A stretch of DNA of 40,933 nt from Actinomycetota bacterium (GTDB lineage Bacteria; Actinomycetota; Actinomycetes; S36-B12; UBA5976). Each line of letters opens with the position of its first letter. Position 1 is the stretch's first letter. The stretch lies in contig JBJOKB010000050.1 of assembly GCA_046046315.1 (NCBI GenBank), positions 1 to 40,933 of the forward strand, read 5' to 3'. The notes below the pieces were generated by a model. It saw only the letters and a list, made by a program, of their open reading frames with translations. It did not search any database and was not told the DNA's origin. This document shows positions 9,159 to 40,523 of the stretch, piece by piece. The position numbers and the translations under genes were made by a program.

Positions 9159-9166
9159 GTAAATCT

Positions 9167-9182
9167 TGTGTGACATTTCACA
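9167..9182. promoter_or_regulatory. CRP/GlxR-like (or Rex-like) palindromic operator upstream of the sdh operon
   Basis: TGTGT-GACATT-TCACA, one mismatch to TGTGA-N6-TCACA. Confidence 0.5.
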
Positions 9183-9228
9183 TCAGATTGAACAACTTTC
9201 ACCTATGCAGCAATACCCAGTACAGGAC

Positions 9229-9234
9229 TAAACT
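9229..9234 (+). promoter_or_regulatory. -10 element of a leaderless sdh transcript
   Basis: TAAACT 6 nt upstream of ATG 9241. Confidence 0.55.
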
Positions 9235-9240
9235 CAAGCC

Positions 9241-11946: not shown

Positions 11947-11949
11947 CTA

Positions 11950-12699
11950 ATGGGTTATCTAGCAAAATTAAGAGTTTGGCGTGGTAATAAAGAAAAAGGC
12001 GAATTAGTTAACTACAACGTCGAAGTTAGCGAAGGCGAAGTACTACTTGATGTAATCCATCGCCTCCAAGCAACTGAAAGCCCAGATTTAGCAGTTAGAT
12101 GGAATTGCAAAGCCGGTAAATGTGGATCTTGTAGCGCAGAGATAAATGGCAAACCAAGCTTGATGTGCATGACTCGTATGAATACTTTCAACGAGGAAGA
12201 TCAAGTTACTGTAACTCCACTTAGAACTTTTCCTGTAATTAAGGATCTTGTAACAGATGTTTCTTTCAATTACAAAAAAGCACGTGAAGTACCTGCATTC
12301 AAAGGCCCAGAAAACCTCAAACCAGGTGAATACCGAATGCAACAAGTTGATGTTGAAAGAAGCCAAGAATTTAGAAAATGTATTGAATGCTTCCTCTGTC
12401 AAGATGTTTGCCACGTAATTCGTGACCATGAAGAAAACAAAGAAAGTTTTGCTGGTCCAAGATTCTTTATTCGTCTTGCTGAATTAGATATGCATCCATT
12501 GGATCAATTAGATAGAAAAAGAGAAGCACAAGAATCTCATGGACTTGGCATGTGCAACATCACTAAGTGCTGCACCGAGGTTTGCCCAGAACACATCAAA
12601 ATTACAGACAATGCAATCATTCCTATGAAAGAACGTGTTGTAGATACTAAATATGATCCATTGGTTTGGCTGGGTAAAACTATTACCCGTCGCAAATAA
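11950..12699 (+). CDS. sdhB: Succinate dehydrogenase iron-sulfur subunit
   Basis: CKAGKCGSC, CIECFLCQDVC, CNITKCCTEVCP. Confidence 0.95.
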   Translation: MGYLAKLRVWRGNKEKGELVNYNVEVSEGEVLLDVIHRLQATESPDLAVRWNCKAGKCGSCSAEINGKPSLMCMTRMNTFNEEDQVTVTPLRTFPVIKDLVTDVSFNYKKAREVPAFKGPENLKPGEYRMQQVDVERSQEFRKCIECFLCQDVCHVIRDHEENKESFAGPRFFIRLAELDMHPLDQLDRKREAQESHGLGMCNITKCCTEVCPEHIKITDNAIIPMKERVVDTKYDPLVWLGKTITRRK

Positions 12700-12706
12700 T
12701 TAAGTT

Positions 12707-13696
12707 TTAGAAACCAACTTTTTCATAAACATTTTTTAGAGTTTGACTGGCTACTTTTTCAGCTTTTTGTGCGCCTTCACCCATCAAAGAATTAAGTTGT
12801 GTTTCATCAGCTAACAATCCCATAGTTTTTTCTCTGAATGGTTTAATAATCTTTTCCACAACCACTTCCCCGGCGTAAGTCTTTAAAGCTCCATAACCTT
12901 TGTTAGCAAATTGACCTTCAATTGTAGACATTTCTTCATTTGTTACCGCTTTAATAATTGTTAAAAGATTTGAAACCCCTGGTTTGTTTGTTGGATCATA
13001 TTTAACTTCTTTTCCACTATCAGTCACAGCTGTTTTAAATTTCTTCATAACCACATCGGGTTCATCAAGAATAAAAATGCAACCTTGCGGCGATGATTTA
13101 CTCATTTTTGAAGTTGGATCTTGCAAATCAAGAATTTTTGCTGACTCTTTAACGATAAAAGCTTCAGGAACAACGAAGGTTTGGCCAAATTGATTATTAA
13201 ACCTGGTTGCTAAATCTCTTGTTAATTCCAAATGTTGCCTTTGATCTTCTCCCACAGGAACTTTTTCAGCCTGGTAAAGCAAAATATCTGCTGCCTGCAA
13301 TATTGGGTAAGTAAATAATCCAACAGAAGATCTTTCTTGACCACCTTTTTGAGTTTTATCTTTAAATTGAGTCATTCTTCCGGCTTCGCCAAACCCGGTA
13401 AAGCAACTTAAAACCCATGCAAGTTGAGAATGTTGTGGAACTTGGCTTTGAATAAAAACTGTGCTCTTTTTCGGATCGATGCCAACGGCTAAAAGTTGGG
13501 CAAAGGAGGTAAGAGATCTCTTTTTTAAAACTTTTGGTTCAAATTCAGCAGTGATGGCATGTAAATCAACGACAGCGTAAAAGCAGTTATAAGTTTCTTG
13601 CATCTGAACCCATTGACGAAGAGCACCAAAATAATTACCAATGTGAAATGAATCAGCTGTGGGCTGAATCCCTGAAAGCACACTTGGCTTGTTCAT
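12707..13696 (-). CDS. trpS: Tryptophan--tRNA ligase
   Basis: SGIQPT...HIGNYFG, YPILQAADIL, VGEDQRQH, KMSKS. Confidence 0.97.
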   Translation of the reverse strand: MNKPSVLSGIQPTADSFHIGNYFGALRQWVQMQETYNCFYAVVDLHAITAEFEPKVLKKRSLTSFAQLLAVGIDPKKSTVFIQSQVPQHSQLAWVLSCFTGFGEAGRMTQFKDKTQKGGQERSSVGLFTYPILQAADILLYQAEKVPVGEDQRQHLELTRDLATRFNNQFGQTFVVPEAFIVKESAKILDLQDPTSKMSKSSPQGCIFILDEPDVVMKKFKTAVTDSGKEVKYDPTNKPGVSNLLTIIKAVTNEEMSTIEGQFANKGYGALKTYAGEVVVEKIIKPFREKTMGLLADETQLNSLMGEGAQKAEKVASQTLKNVYEKVGF

Positions 13697-13701
13697 GAGT
13701 C

Positions 13702-15006
13702 TTATTGTCCACCATGATTGCTAGTTCCAGGCTCAATTCGACTTACCCTTACTCGTGAAATTCGTCGCACATCCATGCTCAAGATTTCAAATATGCATTG
13801 TTCAGCAATCACAGTTTTGCCTACCGAAGGTAGAGTTCCAAGTTTTGATATTACAAAGCCTGCAACTGTTTCATATGGACCTTCCGGTAAATGAATATGA
13901 GTTGAGTCCGCAAAATCATCGAGATTCATCAGTCCATCAACTTCAACCTCACCATGAAAATCAAGTTCGCTTACTTCACTTTCAGGTTCATCGTCTTCAT
14001 GTCTAATATCTCCAATTAATTCTTCAACTAAATCATCCAAAGTCACAATTCCAGCTGTGCCACCGTATTCATCGGCAACAATAAGTAAATGTTGATTTCC
14101 ATTACGCATTTGTGCCAGAGCGCTTAACACAGATGTTGTTCCAGGTATTGACTCAACTGCAATAGCAATATCCCTAAGTTGCTTGCTTGATTTACGAGCC
14201 TCTAAAGAAAGTAATTGTCTTACATGCACAAAACCCACTATTTCATCAGCCGTTTTATTTATGACCGGATATTTGGTGTGTGGAAGTTTCTCAACAACGA
14301 GAGCGGCTTCAGGAATCGTGGAGTCTGCATCAAGAAACTCAACTTCAGTTCTAGGAGTCATTACTTCTTTTATTTCACGATCATCTGCTTCAAAAACATC
14401 ATCAATTAATGCACGTTCGTTATCACTTAGTTCTTCATGGCCTGCCACTAAATCTCTTAAATCTTCGCCCGTTAACTCTTGACGGCTTGCACTTGGATCT
14501 CCACCTAATAATTTAACAATTAAATTTGTAGATCTACTCAATAACCAAATAAAGGGTCGAGAAACTCGAGCTAATATATCAATTGGATATGCAGCAATTA
14601 ATGCCCAACTTTCTGAATTTTGTAACGCTAACCTTTTTGGAACCAGTTCTCCTAACACAAGTGAAAAGTATGCAATAAATAAAGTGATTAATATAAATGC
14701 AATTACCGAGACAACAGATTCAGGAAAAATCAAATCTAAAATTGGCGATAGAACCGGAGTCAAACTCGAGGCTCCAAATCCTGCACCGATAAATCCTGCT
14801 ACGGTCACACCGACTTGAACAGAAGCTAAAAATCGGTTTGGGTGATCATGTAATTCTTTCAATAATTTTCCACGTCTACCTTTGGTATCTGCAATTCTTT
14901 TTACTTGAGATTCACGCAAAGATACAAGTGCGATTTCAGCGGCAGCAAAAAATCCGCCTACTAAGATAAATAGCAAAACAATAAGGGCACTAACCCAAGT
15001 ACTCAT
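13702..15006 (-). CDS. Hemolysin family (CNNM/CBS/CorC-HlyC) membrane protein
   Basis: FFAAAEIALVSLR, GELVPKRLA, EVMTPRTEV, DEYGGTAGIVTLDDLVEELIGDI, YETVAGF. Confidence 0.92.
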   Translation of the reverse strand: MSTWVSALIVLLFILVGGFFAAAEIALVSLRESQVKRIADTKGRRGKLLKELHDHPNRFLASVQVGVTVAGFIGAGFGASSLTPVLSPILDLIFPESVVSVIAFILITLFIAYFSLVLGELVPKRLALQNSESWALIAAYPIDILARVSRPFIWLLSRSTNLIVKLLGGDPSASRQELTGEDLRDLVAGHEELSDNERALIDDVFEADDREIKEVMTPRTEVEFLDADSTIPEAALVVEKLPHTKYPVINKTADEIVGFVHVRQLLSLEARKSSKQLRDIAIAVESIPGTTSVLSALAQMRNGNQHLLIVADEYGGTAGIVTLDDLVEELIGDIRHEDDEPESEVSELDFHGEVEVDGLMNLDDFADSTHIHLPEGPYETVAGFVISKLGTLPSVGKTVIAEQCIFEILSMDVRRISRVRVSRIEPGTSNHGGQ

Positions 15007-15040
15007 ATGTTAAAGATGCTACTCAATCTATGGATTTTGA

Positions 15041-16252
15041 TTAAAGGCTTGAGTCTAATTGGCGCTTAATTCCTGCCAAATAATCCTCAGTTGTTGCCCA
15101 AGGGTGATCTTTGCTGATCAATCGGGCTAAGTCTTTTGTCATTAATCCAGATTCAACAGTTTTTATGCAAGCATCTTCCAAAGATTTTGCAAAACCAATT
15201 AACTCATTATTGTTGTCTAATTTTCCTCTATGAACAAGGCCACCTGTCCAAGCAAAAATAGAAGCAATTGGGTTTGTAGATGTTGGTTCACCTTTTTGGT
15301 GTTGACGATAATGGCGAGTTACAGTTCCATGAGCTGCTTCAGATTCAACAGTTTTTCCATCTGGCGTCATTAAAACACTTGTCATAAGTCCTAGAGATCC
15401 AAAACCTTGGGCAACGGTGTCACTTTGCACATCGCCATCATAATTTTTACAGGCCCAGACATAACCACCTTCCCATTTCAAGGCCGTCGCCACCATGTCA
15501 TCAATTAAACGATGTTCATATGTTAAACCTTTTGATTCAAATTGGGTTTTGAATTCTTTTTCATAAATATCTTGGAAGATATCTTTAAATCTTCCGTCAT
15601 AAGCTTTCAAAATTGTGTTCTTGGTTGATAAGTAAACCGGATAATTTCTAATTAATCCGTAATTCAATGATGCTCTCGCAAAGTCTTTGATGCTTTCATC
15701 AAAGTTATACATGCCCATTGCTACACCTGAGCCTGAAAAGTCCGCTACTTGAAATTCCATTGGGCTTGAACCATCTGCTGGTTGGAAAGTCATTGTTACT
15801 TTTCCAGGTCCTGGAACTACAAAATCAGTTGCTTTGTATTGATCACCGTGTGCATGACGACCGATAACGATTGGTTTGGTCCAAGAAGGAACAAGTCGAG
15901 GAATGTTGCTAATAATTATTGGTTCACGAAAAATTACTCCACCTAAAATATTACGAATAGTTCCATTAGGTGATTTCCACATCTTCTTTAAACCAAATTC
16001 CTTGACTCGTGCTTCATCAGGAGTAATGGTTGCGCACTTAACTCCAACACCATGTTTTTTAATCGCATGGGCAGAATCAATTGTTACTTGGTCATCTGTC
16101 TTGTCGCGATTTTCAATACTTAAATCGTAATATTCAAGATTTACATCTAAATAAGGCAAAATTAATTCATCCTTGATGAATTGCCAAATGATGCGAGTCA
16201 TTTCATCGCCATCAAGTTCTACTACAGGATTTGCTACCTTAATTTTTGCCAT
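15041..16252 (-). CDS. icd: NADP-dependent isocitrate dehydrogenase (type II dimeric)
   Basis: [52 protein letters not shown]. Confidence 0.97.
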
Positions 16253-16266
16253 TTTTATCCTCTTTT

Positions 16267-17223
16267 TTACAGATCTTTAACGTCAGCTTGTTTTGCTCTT
16301 ACAGCTTCTGCAGCTGTTTTAAGAGCAGTGGTTTCTTCAGGAGTTAATTTGGTTTCAACTACTTTATTTATTCCTTTTGAGCCAATTTCTGCTTCCACAC
16401 CCAAATAAACTCCACTAATTCCATATTCTCCATCAACCCACGCACACACTGGCATTATTTGACCAGAATTTGTTGCAACTGCTTTTGCCATTTGTGCTGC
16501 AGCTGCAGATGGCGCATAGTAAGCCGAACCAGTTTTAAGTAATGCCACAACTTCAGCACCACCATTTCTTGTTCTATCAACTAATACATCAATGTCTTCT
16601 TTAGTCATAACTTCACTTAAAGCTTTTCCTTTTACTGTTGATTGACTTGGAACGGGAACCATAGTTTCTCCATGTGAACCAAGAGTTAAAGTCTTAACAT
16701 CACTTACATGATTTCCTGTTTTTTCTGCAACAAAGTTAGTAAATCTTGCTGTATCTAACATTCCCGCTTGACCCATAACCCTGTTTTTTGGAAAACCAGT
16801 TGCTAATTGGGCAAGAGCAGTCATTTCATCAAGTGGATTAGAAACAACAATTACAACTGAATCAGGGGCGTGCTTTGCAATATTTTCTGAAACTTGTCGA
16901 ACTATTTTTGCATTGGTTTCAATTAAATCCATACGGCTCATGCCCGGTTTTCTAGGTAAACCTGCAGTAATTACAACAATGTTGCATCCTTTAATAGCTT
17001 CATATCCTGAACCATCAAGGCCGGTGGTTTGGCCAACAATCTTTGTTTCAAAGTTTTGAATCGGTCTTGATTGATTCATATCTAATGCAAGGCCTTCAGC
17101 TTTACCTTCTACAACGTCTGTTAAAACAACTGTCTCAAAAATGTCATATTCTGCTAATCGCATAGCAGTAGTTGAACCGTAAAAACCTGCTCCGATAACT
17201 GCAACTTTGCCTGATCTGCTCAC
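16267..17223 (-). CDS. mdh: Malate dehydrogenase (LDH-like family)
   Basis: [47 protein letters not shown]; GTG at 17223 after GAAAGGA SD preferred. Confidence 0.95.
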
Positions 17224-17309
17224 TTGGATTTCAGATCCTTTCAAATTAATTTGAAGGTAAAATTTCTATTTCTATAACTCAAATTCTAGTCAAATACTCA
17301 AAATATGAG

Positions 17310-17660
17310 TTAAGAGGGCACAACTATCGAAAGAATTAAAAGGAAAACTGAAAAACTGCCCAAAATCAAAACGTCTACCCATTTAGTTCTGACGTAAAGC
17401 CAACCCAAAGTGAATCTTGGAAGTGACGCACGTAACACCGCTGCCACAAAAACTCCTAGCGAAAAAACCAAAGCTCCTACTCGAAAGTTAAGTTGAGTCG
17501 CTAAAACGATTCCAATGAATGCAATTAATAGTGGTACTAAAGTTGGCCATTGTCTACGGATTAATTTTTGCCAACGTCCCGTTTGCTTTGGATTTTCATT
17601 AATTGAAACCGCACGCAAACCTCTAGAATCTGAATTTGGTTGAGGAGTTGATGCACTCAT
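17310..17660 (-). CDS. DUF3017-like actinobacterial membrane protein
   Basis: RQWP, FRVG, AAVLRASLP...GWLYVRTKWVDV; usual position between folD and mdh/icd. Confidence 0.75.
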   Translation of the reverse strand: MSASTPQPNSDSRGLRAVSINENPKQTGRWQKLIRRQWPTLVPLLIAFIGIVLATQLNFRVGALVFSLGVFVAAVLRASLPRFTLGWLYVRTKWVDVLILGSFSVFLLILSIVVPS

Positions 17661-17670
17661 AATTTCAAGT

Positions 17671-18603
17671 TTACCTTAAATCACTTGCTAGATATACGGC
17701 CAAGAGCATGAGACCTGCACCACTTATGAGAGCCCAACCCACGTTTATGTTTGCATTAGGCAATATGACATCTAATGCGATTGATGTGATCAATTGTCCA
17801 GACACACTTGCCAAGCCAAAGAGTAAAACTCCTAAAGTTCTAATTGTTGCTGCGGCCAAAAAGACAACTATTGCACCCAAAATTCCAGCTGAATATAACC
17901 ACCATTGATTTGGCCAAGTATTCCAATCTTTTCCAAAAAAATTCATAACAACAAGTGTTAAAGAAACAGTGATCATTGACATTGGAAAATTCAAAAATGC
18001 AGAAACTTGAGAGTTTGCAGCTTTTGTTACTCGACCATTAAGTGAAAATTGAACAGTGACAGCTAAACCTGCACCAATTACAGCAAGAATCGGTAGCCAT
18101 AATATTTCTCCTTGAAAATCGGTTACAGAAAGAAATACAGCCGCAATTCCAATCGCGACTGCAAATAACCTTCGTAGTGTAATTTTTTTTCTTGTACCTG
18201 AACTCAAACCAAACTTGTCAACAACGATTCCACTCACATTTTGAGAAGCTACTAAGACAACTGTGAATAGTCCAGTTCCAATTATGCTGACCGTACTTGA
18301 AGCCGTTGAAATATAAATTGCTCCGGCTACTCCACCTAAAAGTTGCCATTTAGCAAATTTTCCAGAAATAACCTCTTGAAATAGTTTTCTACTTTTACTC
18401 CTTACATCGGGATTTAGAAGGAAAAGAGCCGTAAAAATAGTTCCGCCGATATTTGAAATTAAGGCAGCCATGATGCCGTCATTTAATTCATGAGCTAGTT
18501 GACCACTAATTCCTGCTTGAAGAGTCGCTGCGATTCCTGCGATGAATGCAAGAATTATTGAAATAGGAACGCTTGCTTTTTCAATGAGAAAAATGTCTAA
18601 CAC
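17671..18603 (-). CDS. DMT superfamily transporter (tandem YdcZ/DUF606-like halves)
   Basis: Two repeated 5-TM halves (LQAGISGQL / VQFSLNGRV; WQLLGGVAGA / WLYSAGILGA); start uncertain because it overlaps the purH end. Confidence 0.8.
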   Translation of the reverse strand: MLDIFLIEKASVPISIILAFIAGIAATLQAGISGQLAHELNDGIMAALISNIGGTIFTALFLLNPDVRSKSRKLFQEVISGKFAKWQLLGGVAGAIYISTASSTVSIIGTGLFTVVLVASQNVSGIVVDKFGLSSGTRKKITLRRLFAVAIGIAAVFLSVTDFQGEILWLPILAVIGAGLAVTVQFSLNGRVTKAANSQVSAFLNFPMSMITVSLTLVVMNFFGKDWNTWPNQWWLYSAGILGAIVVFLAAATIRTLGVLLFGLASVSGQLITSIALDVILPNANINVGWALISGAGLMLLAVYLASDLR

Positions 18604-20131
18604 CTGTCAAATACATTGTGATTCCAGATTTTTTAGCAACAGCAATAACTTCATCGTCATTCTTTGATCCACCTGGATGCACTACTGCCTGAACTCCTGC
18701 TTTTATTAAAACTTCAAGTGCATCAGGGAATGGAAAATATGCATCGGATGCGGCAACGCTAGCCTTTGATCTTTCTAGACCTGCTCTATTTACCGCTAAT
18801 TGTGCAGCATCAACCCTGTTAACTTGTCCCATTCCAATTCCAATAACGCCACCATCTTTTGCTAAAACGATTGCATTTGATTTAGGTGCTCGAACACATC
18901 TCCAGGCAAATTCTAAATCTGATATCACTTCATCACTTGGTTCTTTTCCTGCTACTAGTTTCCATTGACCTGGATCGTCTCCATCTGCTTCAACGTCGTC
19001 AACTGTTTGCATTAAAACTCCACCGGTGATGGTGCGCCATTCCACTCTATGTCCCATGTGTGGTCCGGCCAATTGCAAAATTCTTAAGTTTGGTTTTGTT
19101 TTAAGAATTTGTAATGCATCTTCATCAAATGAAGGTGCAACTATAACTTCGGTAAAAATTTCATTAATAAGCATGGCGGTTTGTTTGTCTACTTTTCTAT
19201 TTGTGGCTATAACACCGCCATACGCTGAAACTTTGTCAGCTGCCAATGCTTTTGCAAACGCAGAAGCAAGATTTTTATCTATTGCAATTCCACAAGGGTT
19301 TGCATGTTTGATAATTGCAACACATGGCTCAACGTGATCAAAAACAGCTGCTCGAGCATGGTCGGCATCAACATAATTGTTGTAAGACATTTCTTTACCA
19401 GACAATTGTTTGGCGTGCGCAATTCCTTTTTCAGAACTAATACCGCGATATAACGCAGCAGATTGATGAGGGTTTTCGCCATAACGAAGAACCTCTGCTC
19501 TTGTAAAAGATGCTCCTACCCAGGAAGGTGAATCTTGTTCCGGAGTAATTTTTCTCGACATCCATCGAGCAATTAATGTGTCATACGTAGCAGTGTGAGA
19601 AAAAGCAACGGCAGACCAGTTGAGTCTTAATTCTCTTGAAATTCCTTGTTTTAGATTTTTAATCAGTTCAGGATAATCATTTGGTGAAACAATTACTGAA
19701 ACGTTCTCAAAATTCTTGGCAGCAGCCCTAATTAAAGCCACTCCGCCTATGTCGATTTGTTCTATACACTGATCAAACTCTGCTCCCGAAGCGACTGTGT
19801 CAGTAAATGGATAAAGATTTACCACTACTAAGTCAAAAGGTTTTACTTTTAAATCGTCAATTGTTTTTTTATGATCTACATTTCTTACATCTGCCAATAT
19901 TCCTGCATGAATTAAGGGATGAAGAGTTTTTACTCTGCCGTCTAATATTTCAGTAAAATTTGTAACTTCCGAGACCTGCACAACTGGAATATTTAAGTCT
20001 GAAATTAATTTTGCTGTGGCCCCCGTAGAAACTATTTCCACGCCAGCGTTATTTAATTCCTTGGCTAATTGTGCCAAACCTTCTTTGTTAGAGACACTAA
20101 TTAAGGCTCTTCTTATTATGGTTTTACTCAT
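18581..20131 (-). CDS. purH: Bifunctional AICAR transformylase/IMP cyclohydrolase
   Basis: RALISVSNK, GRVKTLHP, EQIDIGG, LRYGENPHQ, KHANPCG, ASDAYFPF, RHFSH. Confidence 0.97.
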   Translation of the reverse strand: MSKTIIRRALISVSNKEGLAQLAKELNNAGVEIVSTGATAKLISDLNIPVVQVSEVTNFTEILDGRVKTLHPLIHAGILADVRNVDHKKTIDDLKVKPFDLVVVNLYPFTDTVASGAEFDQCIEQIDIGGVALIRAAAKNFENVSVIVSPNDYPELIKNLKQGISRELRLNWSAVAFSHTATYDTLIARWMSRKITPEQDSPSWVGASFTRAEVLRYGENPHQSAALYRGISSEKGIAHAKQLSGKEMSYNNYVDADHARAAVFDHVEPCVAIIKHANPCGIAIDKNLASAFAKALAADKVSAYGGVIATNRKVDKQTAMLINEIFTEVIVAPSFDEDALQILKTKPNLRILQLAGPHMGHRVEWRTITGGVLMQTVDDVEADGDDPGQWKLVAGKEPSDEVISDLEFAWRCVRAPKSNAIVLAKDGGVIGIGMGQVNRVDAAQLAVNRAGLERSKASVAASDAYFPFPDALEVLIKAGVQAVVHPGGSKNDDEVIAVAKKSGITMYLTGVRHFSH

Positions 20132-30245: not shown

Positions 30246-31238
30246 CTACTGCCCTACTGCGTTACAAATTGCAGTGATTGTGGAAGATAAATCCCCAGCT
30301 CTTTTAAATCCTTGAGGCAATTTATCGGGCCACCCAGGTCCTGCCATTAATAACAATGGGGTGGGACGTGCATTTATTAAGTTTTCAAATTCTGCAGGTA
30401 TTGCTTTAACTGGAACTTGTCCCCAAATCAAAACAGCAGCCGGAGCTAATCTTTTAATTGCACTTAACAGAGAGGAATGGGGAACCCGTGCTCCTAAAGC
30501 TCTACTTCCCACTCTTCGTTCAGCTAATGCCGCAGCAGCAACGTACTGCGGAATAGTGTGTAAATCATCTGGCGCAGAAGCTAAAAGTACAGGTCTAATG
30601 TTTACTGGTGCAATTAGTTGATCTGCTCTTTGTTTCATCTGTCCAATAATGGATTCACTTAAAATATGTTCTGATTCAATTCCCTCACCAGTCAATTCCC
30701 ATTTCTTTCCCATGGCAAATAGAACTGGGGTTAACAATTTTTCCCAAGTCCAAATAACACCGCGAGCATGAATACTGTTTTGAATCAACTGTGAACAAGC
30801 AGGAGCATCAAGTGAATAAGCTGCTTTTGCTAATCCCCTGGCAATTGCCGGAGCACCTTGCATCGATAAAACAGCTCCGCCACCTGGGTGGCCAAATTCT
30901 GATTCAATTCCCAATTCATTCAAAACAGTATCGATTTTGTTGCCCAATGTATTTGTGTCCATTAAAGAAATTTCTTGAACGTTGTTCATTTCTGAATTAA
31001 GTGCTACTCGTGCCGCTTCTCCAGCTGGCATTCCCGATAAAACTAAACGTCTCATAAGTTCCAGGCGTGCAATATCTGTGATGCAGTAGCGACGATGCCC
31101 CCCGGAAGATCGATCACTTGGACAAAGTCCATAGCGACGTTCCCAGGTTCGAAGGGTTGCTGGGGCAACACCAACTCGTCTGGCGACCACGGCAACGGTC
31201 AAACCCAGTGAGATTTGGTCTGCTTCGTATTCGGACAT
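30246..31238 (-). CDS. MerR-family regulator with cobalamin-binding domain (CarH/LitR-like)
   Basis: HTH VARRVGVAPATLRTWERRYG...GGHRRY; W-x9-EH (WELTGEGIESEH); DLH in RPVLLASAPDDLHTIP; ATG at 31238 preferred. Confidence 0.85.
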   Translation of the reverse strand: MSEYEADQISLGLTVAVVARRVGVAPATLRTWERRYGLCPSDRSSGGHRRYCITDIARLELMRRLVLSGMPAGEAARVALNSEMNNVQEISLMDTNTLGNKIDTVLNELGIESEFGHPGGGAVLSMQGAPAIARGLAKAAYSLDAPACSQLIQNSIHARGVIWTWEKLLTPVLFAMGKKWELTGEGIESEHILSESIIGQMKQRADQLIAPVNIRPVLLASAPDDLHTIPQYVAAAALAERRVGSRALGARVPHSSLLSAIKRLAPAAVLIWGQVPVKAIPAEFENLINARPTPLLLMAGPGWPDKLPQGFKRAGDLSSTITAICNAVGQ

Positions 31239-31285
31239 AGGCCAATTCTCTCTCGGTTGAACAACTTTGGCCAATCGTAAGGCCG

Positions 31286-31381: not shown

Positions 31382-31681
31382 ATGGCTGATGTGACCCGCT
31401 TACCTGGCCCAAACGCAGATTTATGGGACTGGCAGCTTAAAGGGGCATGCCGTGGTGAAGATCCTGAGATCTTCTTTCACCCTGAGGGTGAACGCGGACC
31501 TGCTCGCGAAAACAGAATTGCTTTAGCAAAATCTATTTGTTCAACTTGCCCTGTTTTGCGTCAATGTGCTGAACACGCTTTGGCTGTTCGTGAACCATAC
31601 GGAGTATGGGGTGCGATGAGTGAAGATGATCGTGAAGCAATTTATGCACCAGTCAAGGAAGTTCTTCCAGTAGCTGGTTAA
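31382..31681 (+). CDS. whiD: WhiB-family Fe-S transcription factor, WhiD/WhiB3 type
   Basis: RLPGPNADLWDWQ, four Cys (CRG, CSTC, C), FFHPEGERG, EPYGVWG. Confidence 0.92.
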   Translation: MADVTRLPGPNADLWDWQLKGACRGEDPEIFFHPEGERGPARENRIALAKSICSTCPVLRQCAEHALAVREPYGVWGAMSEDDREAIYAPVKEVLPVAG

Positions 31682-31752: not shown

Positions 31753-32223
31753 CTAATTTTTAGTTCTTATAAATTGCGCAACTTCAGCATTCTTTCTTAA
31801 ATTAATCAGATCATCAGCCGAAGGAAGAGTTGGTCTGTCACGTTCAACTTTTACCAGGCACAAAAAACCGAGGTAATCATTATCTGTTGATCTAAATTGA
31901 TGCCAAGCCCAAGATGGAACATATAAAAGATTATTTATATCTAATTTAATGATTTTATCTTCGACTAAACAAAAACCTTTGCCTCTAATTGGAATCACGA
32001 TGTGTATATGTTCGTGTTTTTCTAACGTTGTATGCCCTCCTGGTAACACTTCAAAATATCTGACTTCAAAGCCCTCAGGAGTGTTCTCTGCAAATAGCTT
32101 TTTTCGAGTTACATCTTTAAAAGAGGGGTTACCATCTTCATCCTTATAAACTAATTCTTCAATTCCCGACCATTTAAAAGGTTCAGTTTGAAAGACATTA
32201 ATTTGATTTTCGTTTTTTTCCAT
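31753..32223 (-). CDS. Cupin, homologue of 1-methylthio-xylulose-5-phosphate methylsulfurylase
   Basis: W-x-G...YK...FKDVTR, RYFEVLPGGHTTLEKHEHIH, WHQFR, LGFLC (Cys122), ERDRP match the R. rubrum-type enzyme as recalled; clustered with an RLP. Confidence 0.8.
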   Translation of the reverse strand: MEKNENQINVFQTEPFKWSGIEELVYKDEDGNPSFKDVTRKKLFAENTPEGFEVRYFEVLPGGHTTLEKHEHIHIVIPIRGKGFCLVEDKIIKLDINNLLYVPSWAWHQFRSTDNDYLGFLCLVKVERDRPTLPSADDLINLRKNAEVAQFIRTKN

Positions 32224-32234
32224 AAAATAATTAT

Positions 32235-32708
32235 TTACAAATTTCTCTTTGAATTAATGACTCCGGTATCAAATCCAGCAAGGTGAAGTCCGCCATTAAA
32301 TCTTGCGTGTTCTATTTTTAAACACTTATCTTGAACAACGTTTAATCCTGCCTCAGTGCCTCGTTCTGCTTCTGGTTGGTTGCTGATTCCTAATTGCATC
32401 CAAAAAGTCTTGGCTTTTATTTCAATTGCCTCATCTAAAACTTCTGGAATTGCGGAGGGTTTTCTAAAAACGTCAACAATATCAACTGCTACAGGAATAT
32501 CTTTTAAAGATTTATAGGTTTTTAAACCTAAAATACTTTCAACACTTGGATTTACTAGATATAAATCAAAATTACTGGACGCTAACAAATATGTGATAAC
32601 AAAAAAAGATGCCCTAGATGAATTGTCTGATGCTCCAACTACAGCAACTGTTTTTGAATTTCTTAAAATCTCAGAGATTTCTGATGCATCTGGTTCATGC
32701 CATTTCAT
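32235..32708 (-). CDS. CoA-binding protein (YccU-like)
   Basis: VAVVGAS, VNP, VDIVDVFRK, WMQLGI, QDKCLKIEH; ATGA overlap with the metY stop. Confidence 0.9.
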   Translation of the reverse strand: MKWHEPDASEISEILRNSKTVAVVGASDNSSRASFFVITYLLASSNFDLYLVNPSVESILGLKTYKSLKDIPVAVDIVDVFRKPSAIPEVLDEAIEIKAKTFWMQLGISNQPEAERGTEAGLNVVQDKCLKIEHARFNGGLHLAGFDTGVINSKRNL

Positions 32709-34003
32709 TTAGCTTTTTCTCCAGTTGCGGCCTCAAGTGCTTGATCTATGTCCCAAATAATATCTTCAATATCTTCAATACCTACGCTAATTCTGATCAA
32801 ATCTGACTTTACTCCAGCAGACTTCAGTTGCTCATCAGTTAATTGGCGATGCGTAGTTGAAGCAGGGTGAATTACCAGAGTTCTCACATCTCCCACATTG
32901 GCTAAGTGAGAAGCTAGTTTAAGAGAATTTATGAATTTTTCTCCAACTTCTCTTTCTCCTTTTACCCCAAAACTAAATACAGATCCTGTTCCTAATGGTA
33001 GATATTTTTTTGCACGTTCAAAGTGAGGATGTTTTTTTGATCCAGCAAAATTAACCCAAGAAATGCGAGGATCATTTTCTAGAAAGTTTGCTACGGCAAT
33101 TGCGTTTTCAACGTGATCTTTCATTCGCTGTGACAAAGTTTCTATTCCTTGAATCAATAAGAAAGCTGCTATTGGAGTTAGAGAAGATCCGATATCTCGT
33201 AATTGTTCACTTCTAATTTTGGTTAAGAAACCGTATTCTCCAAAATTTCCCCACCAAGAAACTCCACCGTAGTAAGCAACTGGTTCAAGCATGGATGGAA
33301 ATTTTCCATTTCCCCAATTAAATTTTCCGGACTCAACAATAATTCCGCCTAAAGTTGAACCGTGTCCACCCATAAATTTTGTCAAACTGTGGACCACTAT
33401 GTCGGCGCCATGTTCAATTGGTCTAATTAAATAAGGAGTAGTAATAGTTGAGTCTATTATTAAAGGAATCCCATGATCGTGGGCAACTTTTGCTAAACCG
33501 GCAATATCGGCAACTTCATTAGATGGATTTGACACAACTTCTGCAAAAATAAATTTAGTTTTTTCTGTAAGAGCTTTTTTGTAATCCTCTGGATCTGAAC
33601 TTGAAACAAAAGTTGTCGAGACCCCAAACTTCTTCATGGTTACATCTAGTTGGGTAATTGTGCCACCATAAAGATTTGCAGAAGCTACAACATGATCACC
33701 ATTACCAACTAGTGATGCAAATACTAAAAATTGAGCTGATAAACCAGAAGCGGTTGCTACTGCACCAATGCCGCCTTCAAGTGCAGCGACTTTTTCTTCT
33801 AATGCTGCAACTGTTGGATTTGAAATCCTGCTATATATGTTTCCATATTTTCTCAGGGCAAAAAGATCGCCTGCATCTTCTGTATTTTCAAAAACAAATG
33901 CTGTTGATTGATATATGGGTACTGTTCTTGATCCTGTTTCTTTGTCCGGGGCAGTTCCCGAATGCAAGGATTTAGTTTTGAATCCAAATTCATGATCTGA
34001 CAT
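32705..34003 (-). CDS. metY: O-acetylhomoserine aminocarboxypropyltransferase (sulfhydrylase)
   Basis: PIYQST, IYSRISNPT, LYGGT, HSLTKFMGGHG (PLP Lys), HLANVGDVRTLVIHPASTTH. Confidence 0.93.
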   Translation of the reverse strand: MSDHEFGFKTKSLHSGTAPDKETGSRTVPIYQSTAFVFENTEDAGDLFALRKYGNIYSRISNPTVAALEEKVAALEGGIGAVATASGLSAQFLVFASLVGNGDHVVASANLYGGTITQLDVTMKKFGVSTTFVSSSDPEDYKKALTEKTKFIFAEVVSNPSNEVADIAGLAKVAHDHGIPLIIDSTITTPYLIRPIEHGADIVVHSLTKFMGGHGSTLGGIIVESGKFNWGNGKFPSMLEPVAYYGGVSWWGNFGEYGFLTKIRSEQLRDIGSSLTPIAAFLLIQGIETLSQRMKDHVENAIAVANFLENDPRISWVNFAGSKKHPHFERAKKYLPLGTGSVFSFGVKGEREVGEKFINSLKLASHLANVGDVRTLVIHPASTTHRQLTDEQLKSAGVKSDLIRISVGIEDIEDIIWDIDQALEAATGEKAK

Positions 34004-34009
34004 AAATCA

Positions 34010-34096
34010 ACGCTACCACATTTAAAATCTGCGAACTTTTTGCAATAAATCTGACGAAGCGACTCATTTATGGCCTGCTTCAAACAATGGTAGCAT
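34010..34096. promoter_or_regulatory. Divergent extended -10 promoters for metY and the RLP gene
   Basis: Minus strand TGG-TAGCGT (34015-34010) 6 nt before the metY ATG; plus strand TGG-TAGCAT (34091-34096) 10 nt before the RLP ATG. Confidence 0.55.
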
Positions 34097-34106
34097 TTTC
34101 ATATCT

Positions 34107-35207
34107 ATGTCAAAATTTCAAATTACGTATTTAGTCGATTCGAATTCCGCTGATGATTTATTTCATTCAATAAAAGTTGAGCAAACTACAGAATTTCCTT
34201 TTGAGCTTTCCCCTGAATGGATTCAGAATGAAATTGTTGGACAACTAATTTCTAAAAATGAAAAGCAAAATAAAACTGAAATAATAATTCAATATGATTT
34301 AGCTATAACTGGAAAAGAATTACCACAATTACTAAATATAATTTGGGGAAATATTTCAATGTACCCAAATGTAAAAATTATTAATCTAAGTTTTAGTAAT
34401 GAATTATTGCAATTTCTTAAAGGTCCTAGATTTGGTATTTCAGGTTTACGAAAAAAACTTAATGTTTCATCAAGACCAATACTTGCTACCGCTTTAAAAC
34501 CAATGGGTCTTAGTTCCACCGAGTTTGCTCAAATGGCCAAAACACTTGTTGAAGCTGGATTTGATTTAATAAAAGATGATCAAAGTCTTGCAAACCAGAC
34601 CTGGGCGCAATGGCTTGAAAGAGTAAAAATTATTTCACAAACCGTAAATGAAGCGAATTCTAAATTTGGAAAAAATACAATTTATGCTCCAAGTTTAAAT
34701 AGACCTGCAGATGAGATTGCTGATTGCGCATTTGAAGCGAAAAGTTTTGGAGCTGGTGCATTTTTAGTGATGCCAGGAGTTTTTGGTTTTGACACAATGC
34801 GCATGCTTGCTGACAATGATGAACTGGCACTTCCCATTATGAGTCATCCATCAATGCTTGGGTCATTTTTTATGGATCAAAATCAAGGTCTGACTCATGA
34901 GTTAGTCCTAGGAACACTTAATCGAATAAGTGGTGCAGATATTTGTATATTCCCTAATTTTGGTGGACGGTTTAGTTTTACTCCAGAAGAGTGTTTAAGT
35001 ATTTCTAATTCTTGTCGAAATGATATGTCTCATATAAATAAAATTTGGCCAAGTCCAGGTGGTGGTATGACGATTGAAAGAATTCCAGAGATTATTAATT
35101 TCTACGGTAATGACACGATCTTATTAATTGGTGGAGCACTTCATCGTAATAACTTATTTAACAATGCAAAAGAATTATTTGAGTTAGTTAATAAATTAGA
35201 ATCCTAA
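34107..35207 (+). CDS. RuBisCO-like protein (form IV, R. rubrum/deep-YkrW type), putative methylthioribulose-1-P 1,3-isomerase
   Basis: VEQTTEFP, QLLNIIWGNIS, GPRFGISGLR, TALKPMGLS, DLIKDDQ, MSHPS, FPNFGGRFSF, PSPGGGM, LLIGGAL. Confidence 0.88.
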   Translation: MSKFQITYLVDSNSADDLFHSIKVEQTTEFPFELSPEWIQNEIVGQLISKNEKQNKTEIIIQYDLAITGKELPQLLNIIWGNISMYPNVKIINLSFSNELLQFLKGPRFGISGLRKKLNVSSRPILATALKPMGLSSTEFAQMAKTLVEAGFDLIKDDQSLANQTWAQWLERVKIISQTVNEANSKFGKNTIYAPSLNRPADEIADCAFEAKSFGAGAFLVMPGVFGFDTMRMLADNDELALPIMSHPSMLGSFFMDQNQGLTHELVLGTLNRISGADICIFPNFGGRFSFTPEECLSISNSCRNDMSHINKIWPSPGGGMTIERIPEIINFYGNDTILLIGGALHRNNLFNNAKELFELVNKLES

Positions 35208-35218
35208 AAAGTTTAGAA

Positions 35219-37210
35219 TTATCTAGGAAAAGCTGCTGCTACTCCGCCATCTACTGCTATTACAGATCCAGTTGTTCTAGATGATTCATCTGATAACAAA
35301 TAACTAGTAGTTAAAGCAACATCTTTAGATGTCACATGAACTTTCAACATGTTTCTCGAAGCATAAAAATCTTCTAATTCTTCTGGTTTGACTCCATGGG
35401 CCGCGGCTCTTTGCTCACGAATTCCGCCTTCCCAAAGCTTTGAATTATCAAATATGGCATCTGGGTTGATGGCGTTTGCTCTTATTTGTGCAGATCCGCC
35501 TTCGATTGCAGCAATTCTCATTAGTTGCAACATTCCAGCTTTGCTTACAGAGTAGCCACCAAATCCTGCACCGGGTGAAAAAGCATTTTTACTAGCAATA
35601 TAAACAAGGGATCCGCCAATTCCTTGTTTTCTTAAATTAATCATTGCGTGCTTTGTGATTAAGAATGAACTGGAAAGATTAACTGCCAATCCCTGATTCC
35701 ATTTATCAAGAGTTAATTCTTCTAATGAATCGGAAACACCAATTCCTGCACTCATAACAACACCATCAAATCCACCAAAATTCTTAATTGCAGAGTTTAT
35801 TGTTTCGACAACCACTGATTCTTTTGTTTGATCTCCCACAACAAATTCTGGCTTAAGTCCTTTATTTGCTGAAATCAATTTTTCAGTTTCTTTAAGTCCT
35901 TCTTCACCAAGATCGGCTAAAACTAAACTTGCCCCTTGAGATGCAAGTTCAAGAGCTATTCCCCTACCAATTCCAGAACCTGCTCCTGTGACAACAAAAA
36001 CATGACCTGCAAATTTTTGTGGTTTAGGTTTTGAACTTAATTTGTAAAGTTCCATTGGCCAATAATCAAATCCAAAAACCTCAGAATCTCCAATAGTGTC
36101 TGCTGCCCCAAATGCATCTATAACTCTTCCTGCAACGGAATGTGTATGAAATGCAATATCGGCAAGCATCTTGCCTTCATTTTTACTAGAGCCAGTTGTA
36201 ATAGAACCAATGCCTGGGAGTAAAACAACACGTGGATCTGGATCGTGCATTGAATATCCTGCAGGAAGTAATGATTTGTTTTCTTCAAAATATTTTTTAT
36301 ATCTTTCAACATATTTATCAATCACTGAAATAGAATTTGCCGGATCTGCTTTTTCAGGTAGAACAGCAGACCAAGGCCTAATTCTTAACATGTGATCAGC
36401 ACTGGATGAACCTGCCTCAGCAATTGCAGGTAAATCTTTTCGTTTAGAGATTTCTTGAAGACGATTATCAACTGTCAAAACTCTTCTTGTTTTTTTGCTT
36501 AATTTTCCTCTTAAAGCTAAAAGCAAATCATTAAGCTCCTGATCACTTGGACCTACATGGTCAAATTTTGCTGCTGGTTTAACAGCCAAAGAATCTAAAT
36601 ATTTATTGGCTTTATTAACTGCATTCATTGTTTTGTCTTTACATACATCACTATTTTCATCCCAGACAATTAATCCGTGATGCGCCAAAACAATTCCTTC
36701 CATATCTGCAAATTGGGAAGAGAATTTACTTAATTCAAAACCTGGTCTAATCCAATCCACGTAAGCAAATCCATCACCTAAAGCTTCTTGGACTGCTTTC
36801 TTGCCACCTTTGTGATTTGTTAAAGCACATATTGAATCTGCATGAACATGATCTATGTGCTTAGAAGGTAAAAATGCATGCAGCAAGGTTTCTATAGATG
36901 GTCTTCTACTATTTGGATCAACTAACGCTTTTCCAACTAAATCAGTCATTTCTTCATCTGAAAGTTTTTCAAATTGTTTTAAACTTAATAGTTCTTCTAA
37001 ATACAATGCCGGATAATCAACAGCAACAGCATTTGTCATATCCGCGCCTGATCCCTTAACCCATAAAACCGTGCGCTTTCTTCCTAGATGATCTGTAATT
37101 TCACCTTTAGCAGAAGTATTACCTCCTCCAAAAACAACTAAAGATTGGTCTGCTCCAATAAATTGAGAACGCGAAACTAATTCTTCTAGTGCTTTTGGGA
37201 TGGTGGTCAA
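35219..37210 (-). CDS. Bifunctional class II aldolase / short-chain dehydrogenase (RhaEW/YuxG-like fusion)
   Basis: GGGNTSAK, VKGSG, PSIETLLHAFLP, DHVHAD, HHGL (aldolase); VTGAGSGIG, YSVSK, NAINPD (SDR); TTG at 37210 after AAGGA, 1 nt past the mtnA stop, preferred over 37261. Confidence 0.88.
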   Translation of the reverse strand: MTTIPKALEELVSRSQFIGADQSLVVFGGGNTSAKGEITDHLGRKRTVLWVKGSGADMTNAVAVDYPALYLEELLSLKQFEKLSDEEMTDLVGKALVDPNSRRPSIETLLHAFLPSKHIDHVHADSICALTNHKGGKKAVQEALGDGFAYVDWIRPGFELSKFSSQFADMEGIVLAHHGLIVWDENSDVCKDKTMNAVNKANKYLDSLAVKPAAKFDHVGPSDQELNDLLLALRGKLSKKTRRVLTVDNRLQEISKRKDLPAIAEAGSSSADHMLRIRPWSAVLPEKADPANSISVIDKYVERYKKYFEENKSLLPAGYSMHDPDPRVVLLPGIGSITTGSSKNEGKMLADIAFHTHSVAGRVIDAFGAADTIGDSEVFGFDYWPMELYKLSSKPKPQKFAGHVFVVTGAGSGIGRGIALELASQGASLVLADLGEEGLKETEKLISANKGLKPEFVVGDQTKESVVVETINSAIKNFGGFDGVVMSAGIGVSDSLEELTLDKWNQGLAVNLSSSFLITKHAMINLRKQGIGGSLVYIASKNAFSPGAGFGGYSVSKAGMLQLMRIAAIEGGSAQIRANAINPDAIFDNSKLWEGGIREQRAAAHGVKPEELEDFYASRNMLKVHVTSKDVALTTSYLLSDESSRTTGSVIAVDGGVAAAFPR

Positions 37211-37211
37211 T

Positions 37212-38234
37212 TTAGTTTCCTTGTTTTCTATTAGCTGGAGTTTCACCTTTTGAAACTTCAATTACGCCTAACTCTGTAACTATTGCTGAAATATATTTTG
37301 CCGGAGTCACATCAAAGGCTGGGTTGTAACCCCTGGACTCTAGAGGTGCAACTCTTACTCCATTAAAATTTAAGATTTCAGAATCATCACGCAATTCAAT
37401 TTCAATTTCATTTCCTGTTTTTGTCGATAAATCCACAGTGGATTCAGGTGCTACAACCATAAACGGAATATTTGCAGCATGACAAGCTAATGCAACTCCC
37501 AAAGAACCGATTTTGTTTGCAGTATCTCCATTTGCAGCAATTCGATCTGCACCAATTAACGCAACATCTACTTCACCTCTAAGAATGGTGCTGGCTGCTG
37601 CACCATCTGCTAAAACTAAATGTGGAATTTTATTTTGTACTAATTCCCAAGCAGTTAATCTTGCGCCTTGCAAAAGCGGTCTTGTTTCATCTGCAAAAAC
37701 ATTTTCAACTAAACCCCGTTCGTGTAATTCTCTTATAACACCAAATGCTGTTCCCCAAGCAGTTGTCGCAAGCATTCCAGTATTGCAATGGGTAAGAATT
37801 CTTAAAGGTCTTCTCGTTATTTTATTTAAAATCCAATCAGCGCCAAGTTGGCCAGTTTTCTTATTTCCTTTTTCATCTTCTGCGGCAATTTGTTTTGCTA
37901 AAGCTAAAACTGCATCGCGACCATTTTCTAATTGTGTGAGTGCTTTATCTACACCCCAGGCAAGATTTACTGCTGTTGGTCTTGCATCTCTGATTTTGAG
38001 AATTTGTTTTTCTAATTCATCTTTTGACCAGTTTTCTTTTTTCCCCTGATCGATTGCAGTAACAACTCCATATGCACCGGTTGCTCCTAAAGCAGGGGCT
38101 CCCCTAACTGCTAAACAAACAATCGCATCAACTAACTGATCAACTTTTGTGATTTCCAAAAATGAAACTTCATGAGGAATCTTCGTTTGATCTAGCAGAC
38201 GAAGGTGGTCTTCCACCCAAACAACAGCGCGCAA
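37212..38234 (-). CDS. mtnA: Methylthioribose-1-phosphate isomerase
   Basis: LLDQTKIP, VRGAPALG, ARPTAVNL, LTHCNTG, ETRPLLQGARLTAWEL, GADRIAANGDTANKIG, NPAFDVTP. Confidence 0.95.
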   Translation of the reverse strand: MRAVVWVEDHLRLLDQTKIPHEVSFLEITKVDQLVDAIVCLAVRGAPALGATGAYGVVTAIDQGKKENWSKDELEKQILKIRDARPTAVNLAWGVDKALTQLENGRDAVLALAKQIAAEDEKGNKKTGQLGADWILNKITRRPLRILTHCNTGMLATTAWGTAFGVIRELHERGLVENVFADETRPLLQGARLTAWELVQNKIPHLVLADGAAASTILRGEVDVALIGADRIAANGDTANKIGSLGVALACHAANIPFMVVAPESTVDLSTKTGNEIEIELRDDSEILNFNGVRVAPLESRGYNPAFDVTPAKYISAIVTELGVIEVSKGETPANRKQGN

Positions 38235-38321: not shown

Positions 38322-38843
38322 ATGAAGCAAATAATACGAGTTTTATTAGGTATCTCAGTCTTATGTATTTTTTCCTTAGCTCCAGCTCAGGCTCACACAG
38401 AACTAGTCTCTGTTGAACCAGCAACTGATCAGGTCATGCTAACGCTGCCATCAGAAATTAAATTAACTTTTGGAGAATCAGTTATAGCTGAAGGAACTTT
38501 TGCTTCAGTTACCACATCTTCAGGATCTGTTGAAACAACTGTAAGAGTTGAAGCTGCAGAAGTTTATGTTTCAATTCCAACAGATGTTGTAGGTCCAGAT
38601 ATAACAATTTCTTGGAAAACAGTTGCTGCTGATGGTCATCCTTTGGACGGAGAAGTTGTTTACAAACTTGCAGAAGCTCGAGATGTGGCAACACCAGAAG
38701 TGACAACCATGGAAGAAGAACCTGTAGTAATAAGTGCACCAGTTGAAGAAAATTCTTCTAACATTAGTTGGCTACAATGGCTTTCCCTTGGTGCATCAAT
38801 TGGAATTGCTATTACTTTCTTTTTGAAAATGCGCAAAAAATAA
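38322..38843 (+). CDS. CopC-family copper-binding protein with C-terminal membrane anchor
   Basis: Signal peptide ending AQA, then His as mature residue 1 (HTELVS); LTFGE; ADGHP; C-terminal TM helix plus RKK. Confidence 0.85.
   Translation: MKQIIRVLLGISVLCIFSLAPAQAHTELVSVEPATDQVMLTLPSEIKLTFGESVIAEGTFASVTTSSGSVETTVRVEAAEVYVSIPTDVVGPDITISWKTVAADGHPLDGEVVYKLAEARDVATPEVTTMEEEPVVISAPVEENSSNISWLQWLSLGASIGIAITFFLKMRKK

Positions 38844-38888: not shown

Positions 38889-40523
<1,635 letters not shown>

Follow-up and report, generated by a model that had tools for sequence, protein, structure and literature searches.

The window analysed here is a stretch of 40,933 nucleotides from an Actinomycetota bacterium (GTDB lineage Bacteria; Actinomycetota; Actinomycetes; S36-B12; UBA5976), corresponding to positions 1 to 40,933 of contig JBJOKB010000050.1 in the assembly GCA_046046315.1. 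It carries a block of six genes, coding for a cupin, a CoA-binding protein, MetY, a RuBisCO-like protein (RLP), a class II aldolase fused to a short-chain dehydrogenase/reductase (SDR), and MtnA, which are read below as a probable salvage locus for by-products of S-adenosylmethionine (SAM). A first-pass annotation, made from the sequence alone, had placed these six genes side by side between a whiB-type gene and copC/groEL. All six open reading frames were found at the coordinates that it gave, between whiB and copC, with concordant Pfam and NCBIfam names for each of them (Table 1). The G+C content ranges from 35 to 41% along the window, and the genome itself, which is 87% complete, amounts to 1.17 Mb in 121 contigs with a G+C content near 38%.

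The six genes are organised in three transcription units: mtnA followed by the aldolase-SDR gene on the minus strand, the RLP gene alone on the plus strand, and metY followed by the CoA-binding and cupin genes on the minus strand. The RLP gene converges on the aldolase-SDR gene with a gap of 11 nt and diverges from the metY unit over a 103-bp region, which presumably carries both promoters. Within the metY unit, metY and the CoA-binding gene overlap by 4 nt, and 11 nt separate the latter from the cupin gene; since these three genes are tightly packed on one strand and are also linked in other genomes, their order is not a chance juxtaposition. As for regulatory signals, Rfam models at their gathering thresholds gave no match to a riboswitch or other RNA element across the whole window, and promoter and terminator scans returned fewer sites than in shuffled sequences.

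Table 1. Coordinates of the six-gene block and its flanks in the 40,933-nucleotide window
Feature	Positions	Strand	Remarks
whiB (WhiB)	31382-31681	+	upstream flank
cupin	31753-32223	-	156 aa; Cupin_2 28 bits (cut-off 27.2)
CoA-binding protein (CoA_binding_2, PF13380)	32235-32708	-	157 aa; 126 bits
metY	32705-34003	-	432 aa; TIGR01326 595.8 bits (cut-off 495.1)
metY/RLP divergent intergenic region	34004-34106		103 bp
RuBisCO-like protein (RLP)	34107-35207	+	366 aa; RuBisCO_large PF00016 86.8 bits
aldolase_II + SDR fusion	35219-37261	-	680 aa
mtnA	37212-38234	-	340 aa; TIGR00512 404.4 bits (cut-off 279)
copC (CopC)	38322-38843	+	downstream flank
GroEL gene	38889-40517	-	beyond copC

The RLP gene is the sole RuBisCO_large gene found in the genome. 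When its product was compared with all PDB chains (phmmer), the best match was 3qfw (199 bits, E 1e-57), followed by the MtnW enolases (142-152 bits), the Chlorobium RLP (120 bits), RLP2 of Rhodopseudomonas palustris (2qyg, 116 bits) and 3nwr (71 bits); because 2qyg is RLP2, 3qfw is RLP1. The AlphaFold model of the window RLP (mean pLDDT 86.2) also has 3qfw as its top Foldseek match, under the name 'Rubisco-like protein from Rhodopseudomonas palustris' (TM 0.86-0.90), although MtnW structures score near it and the structural margin over MtnW is small. Concerning the MtnW enolase models, the RLP reaches 178 bits with TIGR03332 and 225 bits with NF007095, where the cut-offs are 513.6 and 409, respectively. 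The PDB scores thus set this protein apart from the YkrW enolases, in line with the first-pass reading. RLP1 (RPA2169, of the DeepYkr group) and the cupin RPA2170 are encoded by adjoining genes and act in vivo as isomerase and methylsulfurylase (PMC5893883). By analogy, the window RLP is a predicted 1,3-isomerase of methylthioribulose-1-phosphate (MTRu-1-P), giving 1-methylthio-xylulose-5-phosphate (MTXu-5-P).

With HMMER, 1659 matches to the RLP were found among 1.84 billion cluster representatives, and the best 150 (50%-identity clusters) were analysed. Of these, 28 are fusions of an RLP with a cupin, their C-terminal domain being 28-44% identical to the window cupin, and a Pfam scan of ten long RLP relatives found an RLP together with Cupin_2 in seven. 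In a FastTree phylogeny of 213 rows, the actinobacterial clade has fusions to either side of it; 20 of the 150 representatives with a query match of at most 300 residues, locus matches with less than 90% query coverage and identical duplicates had been dropped from this tree. Three sampled rows of this tree have 3qfw as their best PDB match, namely P0233 (330 bits), the fusion P0177 (250 bits, vs. 160 for MtnW) and P0230 (207 bits). Judged by these scores, the whole RLP set is DeepYkr-like and repeatedly fused to a cupin of the Rru_A2000 type, and this recurrent fusion is the strongest argument for the two enzymes acting in sequence. One relative, P0198, has an inositol-monophosphatase-family domain fused in place of the cupin. 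Several others (among them P0005, P0008 and P0014) are publicly annotated as 'ribulose-bisphosphate carboxylase large chain', a name that invites false inferences of CO2 fixation.

The window cupin, located 1.9 kb from the RLP, aligns end to end with 3kgz (135.5 bits), 3jzv, which is 'Rru_A2000' (131.7 bits, E 2.8e-37), and 3ibm (113 bits). Its residues 8-152 align to residues 12-153 of the 3jzv chain, with 64 identities out of 145 by hand count (about 44%). Among 38 homologues, 25 positions reach a conservation of 90% or more, and the window cupin retains every one of them, including the His/Glu cluster of the cupin motifs (E68, H70, H72, H74 and H108) and C122; 3jzv has the same letters at these six. 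In Pfam, only Cupin_2 was matched, with no match to ARD/MtnD. Rru_A2000 is a cupin-type MTXu-5-P sulfurylase, and Rru_A1998 the DeepYkr isomerase (PMC4958253). The window cupin is likewise a predicted MTXu-5-P methylsulfurylase, releasing 1-deoxyxylulose-5-phosphate (DXP) and either a methylthio-thiol adduct or methanethiol.

Both neighbours of the cupin follow it elsewhere. Among the 11 genomes in which the surroundings of the cupin gene are visible, the CoA-binding gene lies within one gene of it in all 11, and metY is linked to it in eight. The nearest structures of the CoA-binding protein (2duw, 2d59 and 1iuk) are all uncharacterised CoA-binding proteins, and its Cys129 is invariant; that it carries or supplies the thiol for the sulfurylase step is a speculation. 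The window MetY is 49.5% identical to a second copy on contig C87, where metY (18429-19706) adjoins metX (17286-18329, 425 bits). Since that copy sits beside metX, the window metY is an extra, module-specific one. Its product is a predicted O-acetylhomoserine sulfhydrylase that would combine methanethiol with O-acetylhomoserine to give methionine.

At the other end of the block, the TIGR00512 match of MtnA spans residues 2-326, and Pfam IF-2B is matched at 232 bits. The family assignment makes it a candidate S-methyl-5-thioribose-1-phosphate isomerase, for which 5-deoxyribose-1-phosphate is also an expected substrate. The first-pass annotation had correctly reported that mtnP, mtnK and metX are missing from the window; besides metX, a phosphorylase gene is present on another contig (C74). 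It codes for a 246-aa protein scoring 252 bits with the S-methyl-5'-thioinosine phosphorylase model NF006599 (cut-off 223) and just below the cut-off for methylthioadenosine (MTA) phosphorylase, and is directly followed by a TRZ/ATZ deaminase gene of the MTA/5'-deoxyadenosine deaminase kind. The pair (C74:150-2200) suggests entry by deamination followed by phosphorolysis, and MtnK was not found in the genome. Both dxs (650 bits) and dxr (431 bits) score above their cut-offs in the genome profile search, so that the methylerythritol phosphate (MEP) pathway is available to receive DXP. ARD/MtnD (PF03079) had no match in the genome, nor was a separate MtnB or a second Aldolase_II domain found, as expected of the route independent of the O2-dependent MtnD that had been proposed.

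As regards sulfur and thiols, the genome has MshD (247 bits, cut-off 163) and an MshC-like gene. According to PMC6302742, Actinobacteria use mycothiol rather than glutathione, and their sulfurylase step must have a different thiol. A search for the PAPS-reductase family (CysH/CysD) drew a blank in the window genome and in 15 of 18 congeners but gave matches in each of the 14 control genomes, which fits a dependence on reduced sulfur. Cultured Nanopelagicales have been described, in 2025, as lacking assimilatory sulfate reduction and relying on reduced sulfur (PMC12817590).

In the aldolase-SDR fusion, the class II aldolase domain covers approximately residues 20-220 (Aldolase_II, 46.6 bits) and the SDR domain residues 415-680 (adh_short_C2, 148.9 bits), with catalytic motifs in both (HVH138-140, TGAGSGIG425 and YSVSK570). 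Read from its listed TTG start, the gene shares 50 nt with the end of mtnA (37212-37261); the profile matches begin at residues 15-26, and translation probably starts about 15 codons downstream. No MtnB model was among the 25 best-scoring of the 219 NCBIfam matches of this protein. RhaEW proteins, which are its nearest characterised relatives and share its two-domain architecture, combine an aldolase with an NAD+-dependent aldehyde dehydrogenase and are 'always' found in rha loci (PMC3870299). Here, the neighbours are mtnA and the RLP gene and not a rhamnose locus. Rhamnose catabolism was considered and rejected, since RhaA (PF06134) was not found in the genome and the protein scores below the RhaEW cut-off. 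The fusion had been included in the MTA-isoprenoid shunt, a role that does not stand: most likely, it is RhaEW-like and belongs to a separate branch, the dihydroxyacetone phosphate (DHAP) shunt, as a predicted aldolase of MTRu-1-P or 5-deoxyribulose-1-phosphate joined to an aldehyde dehydrogenase or reductase.

The RLP gene is present in 14 of 18 congeners, in 16 of 93 genomes of the family, and in 29 of 249 genomes of the order (at least 85% complete), where it is spread over two of ten families; the cupin occurs in only 5 of the 93 family genomes. A pattern scan of 185,579 species genomes yielded 563 stretches with RLP relatives, of which the best 80 were used for locus counts, a gene being counted at a query coverage of at least 50% and an identity of at least 40%, within 9 kb of the RLP. 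Only 33 of these 80 loci have at least 3 kb on both sides of the RLP, and absences are to that extent under-determined. By their titles, the 80 stretches are nearly all from Actinomycetota (Nanopelagicales, Planktophila, acTH1, Microbacteriaceae, Georgenia, Pontimonas and Aquiluna), two being without a phylum name. Three freshwater metagenome-assembled genome (MAG) records titled 'Bifidobacterium breve' (L043, L082 and L093) hold acI/acTH1-like RLP loci and are probable taxonomic mislabels.

Near the RLP, the aldolase-SDR gene was counted in 51 of the 80 loci, a transketolase C-subunit gene in 47, mtnA in 43, MtnK in 19 and the cupin in four. None of these 80 other loci holds all six window genes, and in none is one RLP flanked by both a transketolase and a cupin. 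In three complete Nanopelagicaceae genomes, an mtnA-aldolase/SDR-RLP group lies about 0.7 Mb from a cupin-metY-CoA-binding group. This separate placement points to two conserved modules, the window being the only case seen with both abutting. The single-cluster layout pointed out in the first-pass annotation was seen only in the window, whereas its RLP, mtnA and aldolase-SDR genes are widespread in freshwater Actinomycetota, with a split transketolase as the usual partner of the RLP and the cupin module usually elsewhere. Gene content, family membership, linkage and fusions are what the analysis shows.

The order in congeners is whiB, split transketolase, RLP, SnoaL, MtnK, sugar ABC transporter, aldolase-SDR, mtnA and copC. 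In one of them (L046), the transketolase pair (306 and 337 aa; 8048-9983) is directly upstream of the RLP, and positions 11089-16346 hold a SnoaL-like gene, MtnK (TIGR01767, 391 bits, cut-off 275) and the three genes of a sugar ABC transporter. The presence of MtnK ties this locus to methylthioribose and, with the transporter, suggests uptake of external methylthioribose or 5-deoxyribose. A second family (L138-L145) has the transketolase pair before the RLP in eight of eight loci. Open frames of 516-554 aa in that family were taken up as candidate RLP-cupin fusions and discarded once they resolved into a transketolase gene and an RLP gene, each in its own frame. In the window genome, no orthologue was found of the transketolase pair, of MtnK, of SnoaL or of the binding protein. 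The transketolase is a possible alternative enzyme acting on the RLP product, and the window gives the impression of a lineage whose back end has been exchanged (cupin module vs. transketolase). Upstream of whiB, MerR-family and LuxR-type regulator genes keep their position in congeners; in the window, the former (30246-31274) codes for a 342-aa protein that weakly resembles CarH (75.6 bits, cut-off 400).

Taken together, the block is probably a salvage locus for the 5-deoxy-pentose phosphates that derive from SAM by-products, with one entry enzyme and two exits. The C74 deaminase and phosphorylase would convert MTA, and probably also 5'-deoxyadenosine, to methylthioribose-1-phosphate (MTR-1-P) or 5-deoxyribose-1-phosphate, which MtnA would isomerise to the ribulose-1-phosphates. 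Through the first exit, the MTA-isoprenoid shunt, the RLP would shift the carbonyl group to give MTXu-5-P, and the cupin would strip the methylthio group with the help of a thiol, so delivering DXP to the MEP pathway; as to the thiol, mycothiol is the obvious candidate, the CoA-binding protein may participate, and the dedicated MetY would return methanethiol to methionine with O-acetylhomoserine. The second exit would be a DHAP shunt on one polypeptide, the aldolase domain splitting the ribulose-1-phosphate into DHAP and 2-(methylthio)acetaldehyde or acetaldehyde, and the fused SDR domain oxidising or reducing the aldehyde. The pathway originally proposed for the locus is partly supported by this picture: MtnA, a DeepYkr-like RLP, an Rru_A2000-type cupin and MetY are adjacent, with dxs and dxr present, the call was right in outline, and none of the outcomes that the first-pass annotation had listed as speaking against it turned up. 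It was incomplete for two genes and overstated the exclusivity of the gene set, and the assertion that every step after MTA phosphorolysis is encoded went too far, as it leaves the thiol co-substrate, its recycling and the CoA-binding partner out of account.

A more far-reaching version, which we hold to be possible but doubtful, is that freshwater Actinomycetota devoid of sulfate reduction have a glutathione-independent RLP pathway with interchangeable back ends. One, that of the window, would be the cupin with MetY and with the CoA-binding protein as thiol carrier or supplier of the co-substrate, turning the methylthio group into methionine with no escape of free methanethiol; the other, that of most congeners and of the second family, would be the split transketolase, acting on the RLP product. 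The RLP would then perhaps also make DXP directly from 5-deoxyribulose-1-phosphate. If this were true, a single locus would render both SAM by-products harmless while giving back sulfur, triose phosphate and a precursor for isoprenoids.

Several observations weigh against the salvage-locus reading. All substrates and products are predicted ones, and as the genome is 87% complete each gene reported as not found is provisional. In the Foldseek alignment, identity between the RLP and 3qfw is no more than about 31%, and the placement of this protein in the DeepYkr group, which draws on best-hit scores, fusions and context, has a modest margin. The RLP carries Gln159 (codon CAA, window 34581-34583) in the K156-D-D-x motif, where 3qfw and all 82 actinobacterial relatives have His, in a column that would correspond to a metal ligand of RuBisCO. 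This is one of its six deviations among 98 columns conserved to 95% or more in these relatives (median of one), and in a smaller tree of 44 of the 213 rows, hand-picked to represent each subclade, its end branch measures 0.52 vs. a median of 0.19, about three times as long. These deviations, Q159 included, are the main caution on the activity of this RLP, which may be altered or reduced. In both trees, it groups as sister to the congeners with a linked transketolase (support 95) and stays out of the 'B' clade, in which the link is to the cupin (support 99); it belongs to a transketolase-partnered sub-lineage, so that its pairing with the window cupin is not guaranteed. As for the second exit, the best-scoring model of the fusion, TIGR02632 (RhaD_aldol-ADH), stays under its cut-off (537 vs. 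567.75 bits), and its substrate is predicted from the gene context. Finally, spermidine synthase was not found in the genome; the MTA may be of external origin.

Three other explanations were weighed against this reading. The locus could be a variant of classical methionine salvage, with the aldolase domain in the part of an MtnB-type dehydratase, the RLP in that of an MtnW-type enolase and the cupin in that of an MtnD-like dioxygenase, leading to 2-keto-4-methylthiobutyrate. MtnB does belong to the class II aldolase family (PMC6302742), MtnD is likewise a cupin, and the best NCBIfam models of the RLP are by name MtnW, whose structures also come near 3qfw in Foldseek. However, both MtnW models fall far under their cut-offs and no MtnW chain exceeds 152 bits where 3qfw reaches 199; the cupin aligns over its full length with Rru_A2000 and no ARD was found in the genome; the full-length relatives of the aldolase domain are RhaEW-type fusions; and the locus has no gene for an MtnX/MtnC phosphatase or a transaminase, while the linked MetY would be left without a role. 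We therefore regard this variant as very improbable. A somewhat better case, though still an unlikely one, can be made for 5-deoxyribulose-1-phosphate, derived from radical-SAM 5'-deoxyadenosine, as the substrate that the RLP converts directly to DXP, the cupin, CoA-binding protein and MetY being an independent sulfur unit. The distance of about 0.7 Mb between cupin module and RLP unit in the complete Nanopelagicaceae genomes, the cupin near the RLP in only 4 of 80 loci, and the missing spermidine synthase, set against the universal occurrence of radical-SAM by-products, all speak for it, and the chemistry would be formally identical to that of MTRu-1-P. Yet the fusions in 28 of 150 clusters speak for a cupin being normally required to process the RLP product, a true MtnK is linked to the RLP in congeners, and a literature search for '5-deoxyribulose' with 'deoxyxylulose' found no experimental precedent. 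The two substrates are not exclusive of each other, as the RLP could accept both.

It is also conceivable, if quite unlikely, that the locus is a remnant in transition, in which the RLP drifted and became inactive after the replacement of the transketolase pair, and only the DHAP branch and MetY/cupin are working, on other substrates. The deviation count of the RLP, the joint highest of 83 rows, and its long end branch would fit such a drift, as would the failure to find the congener MtnK, ABC transporter, SnoaL and transketolase genes in the window genome. On the other hand, the RLP frame is intact and of full length, its model is confident, and 92 of the 98 conserved columns are retained; Gln could still ligate a metal, and row L040 is equally deviant.

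If the salvage-locus reading is right, its setting gives it some weight. The gene set occurs in acI/acTH1-type Actinomycetota, a group among the most abundant of freshwater bacteria, and an oxygen-independent recovery of methylthio sulfur as methionine would bear directly on the sulfur economy of these bacteria and on methanethiol fluxes in lakes. To our knowledge, experimental evidence for the MTA-isoprenoid shunt comes from two purple alphaproteobacteria only. Beyond these, PMC4958253 predicts it only for Meiothermus, Nitrococcus and Halorhodospira. A literature search, with subscription papers and supplements out of reach, found no description of the cluster, of the CoA-binding partner of the cupin or of the link between RLP and transketolase.

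Compared with the shunt of Rhodospirillum rubrum and R. palustris, the window has the same four enzyme families, RLP and cupin genes as neighbours, independence from oxygen and a predicted product that feeds the MEP pathway (PMC5893883 and PMC4958253). In R. rubrum, the genes are dispersed over at least three loci (A0360/0361, A0774/0784 and A1998/2000), whereas those for MtnA, RLP, cupin and MetY belong to one contiguous block in the window. The window further differs from the purple-bacterial systems by its 1.2-Mb actinobacterial host, the constant CoA-binding neighbour, a dedicated second MetY and Q159, and by an entry that is probably a deaminase with a thioinosine-type phosphorylase instead of MtnP. 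The MtnW/YkrW enolases of Bacillus and Geobacillus resemble the window RLP in their RuBisCO large-chain fold and in their part in MTA salvage, but have 407-425 aa vs. 366, and their partners MtnB, MtnX and MtnD were not found.

On the side of the second exit, the known DHAP shunts (MtnP/MtnK, MtnA, Ald2 and an alcohol dehydrogenase in R. rubrum, R. palustris and Escherichia coli; DrdK/DrdI/DrdA in Bacillus thuringiensis) also have the isomerase gene adjoining one for a class II aldolase fold, and the congeners match their kinase-isomerase-aldolase trio (PMC6079011). A one-protein DHAP shunt would parallel Ald2 with a dehydrogenase in purple bacteria (PMC5893883) and DrdA in Bacillus (PMC6079011). 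Ald2 and DrdA are stand-alone enzymes, however, whereas the window aldolase is fused to an SDR, is of the RhaE branch and shares its locus with an RLP. RhaEW (YuxG; L-rhamnulose-1-phosphate aldolase/L-lactaldehyde dehydrogenase) is alike in architecture and length and is the best-scoring NCBIfam equivalog, with the differences that the window fusion falls below the cut-off, lies beside mtnA and has no RhaA found in its genome. Two questions are raised by the comparison, that of the role of the CoA-binding partner and that of whether the transketolase replaces the cupin. As a whole, the enzymes are new members of known families, and it is their arrangement that is new, in three ways: the CoA-binding protein as an extra partner, a dedicated copy of MetY and a DHAP branch in fused form.

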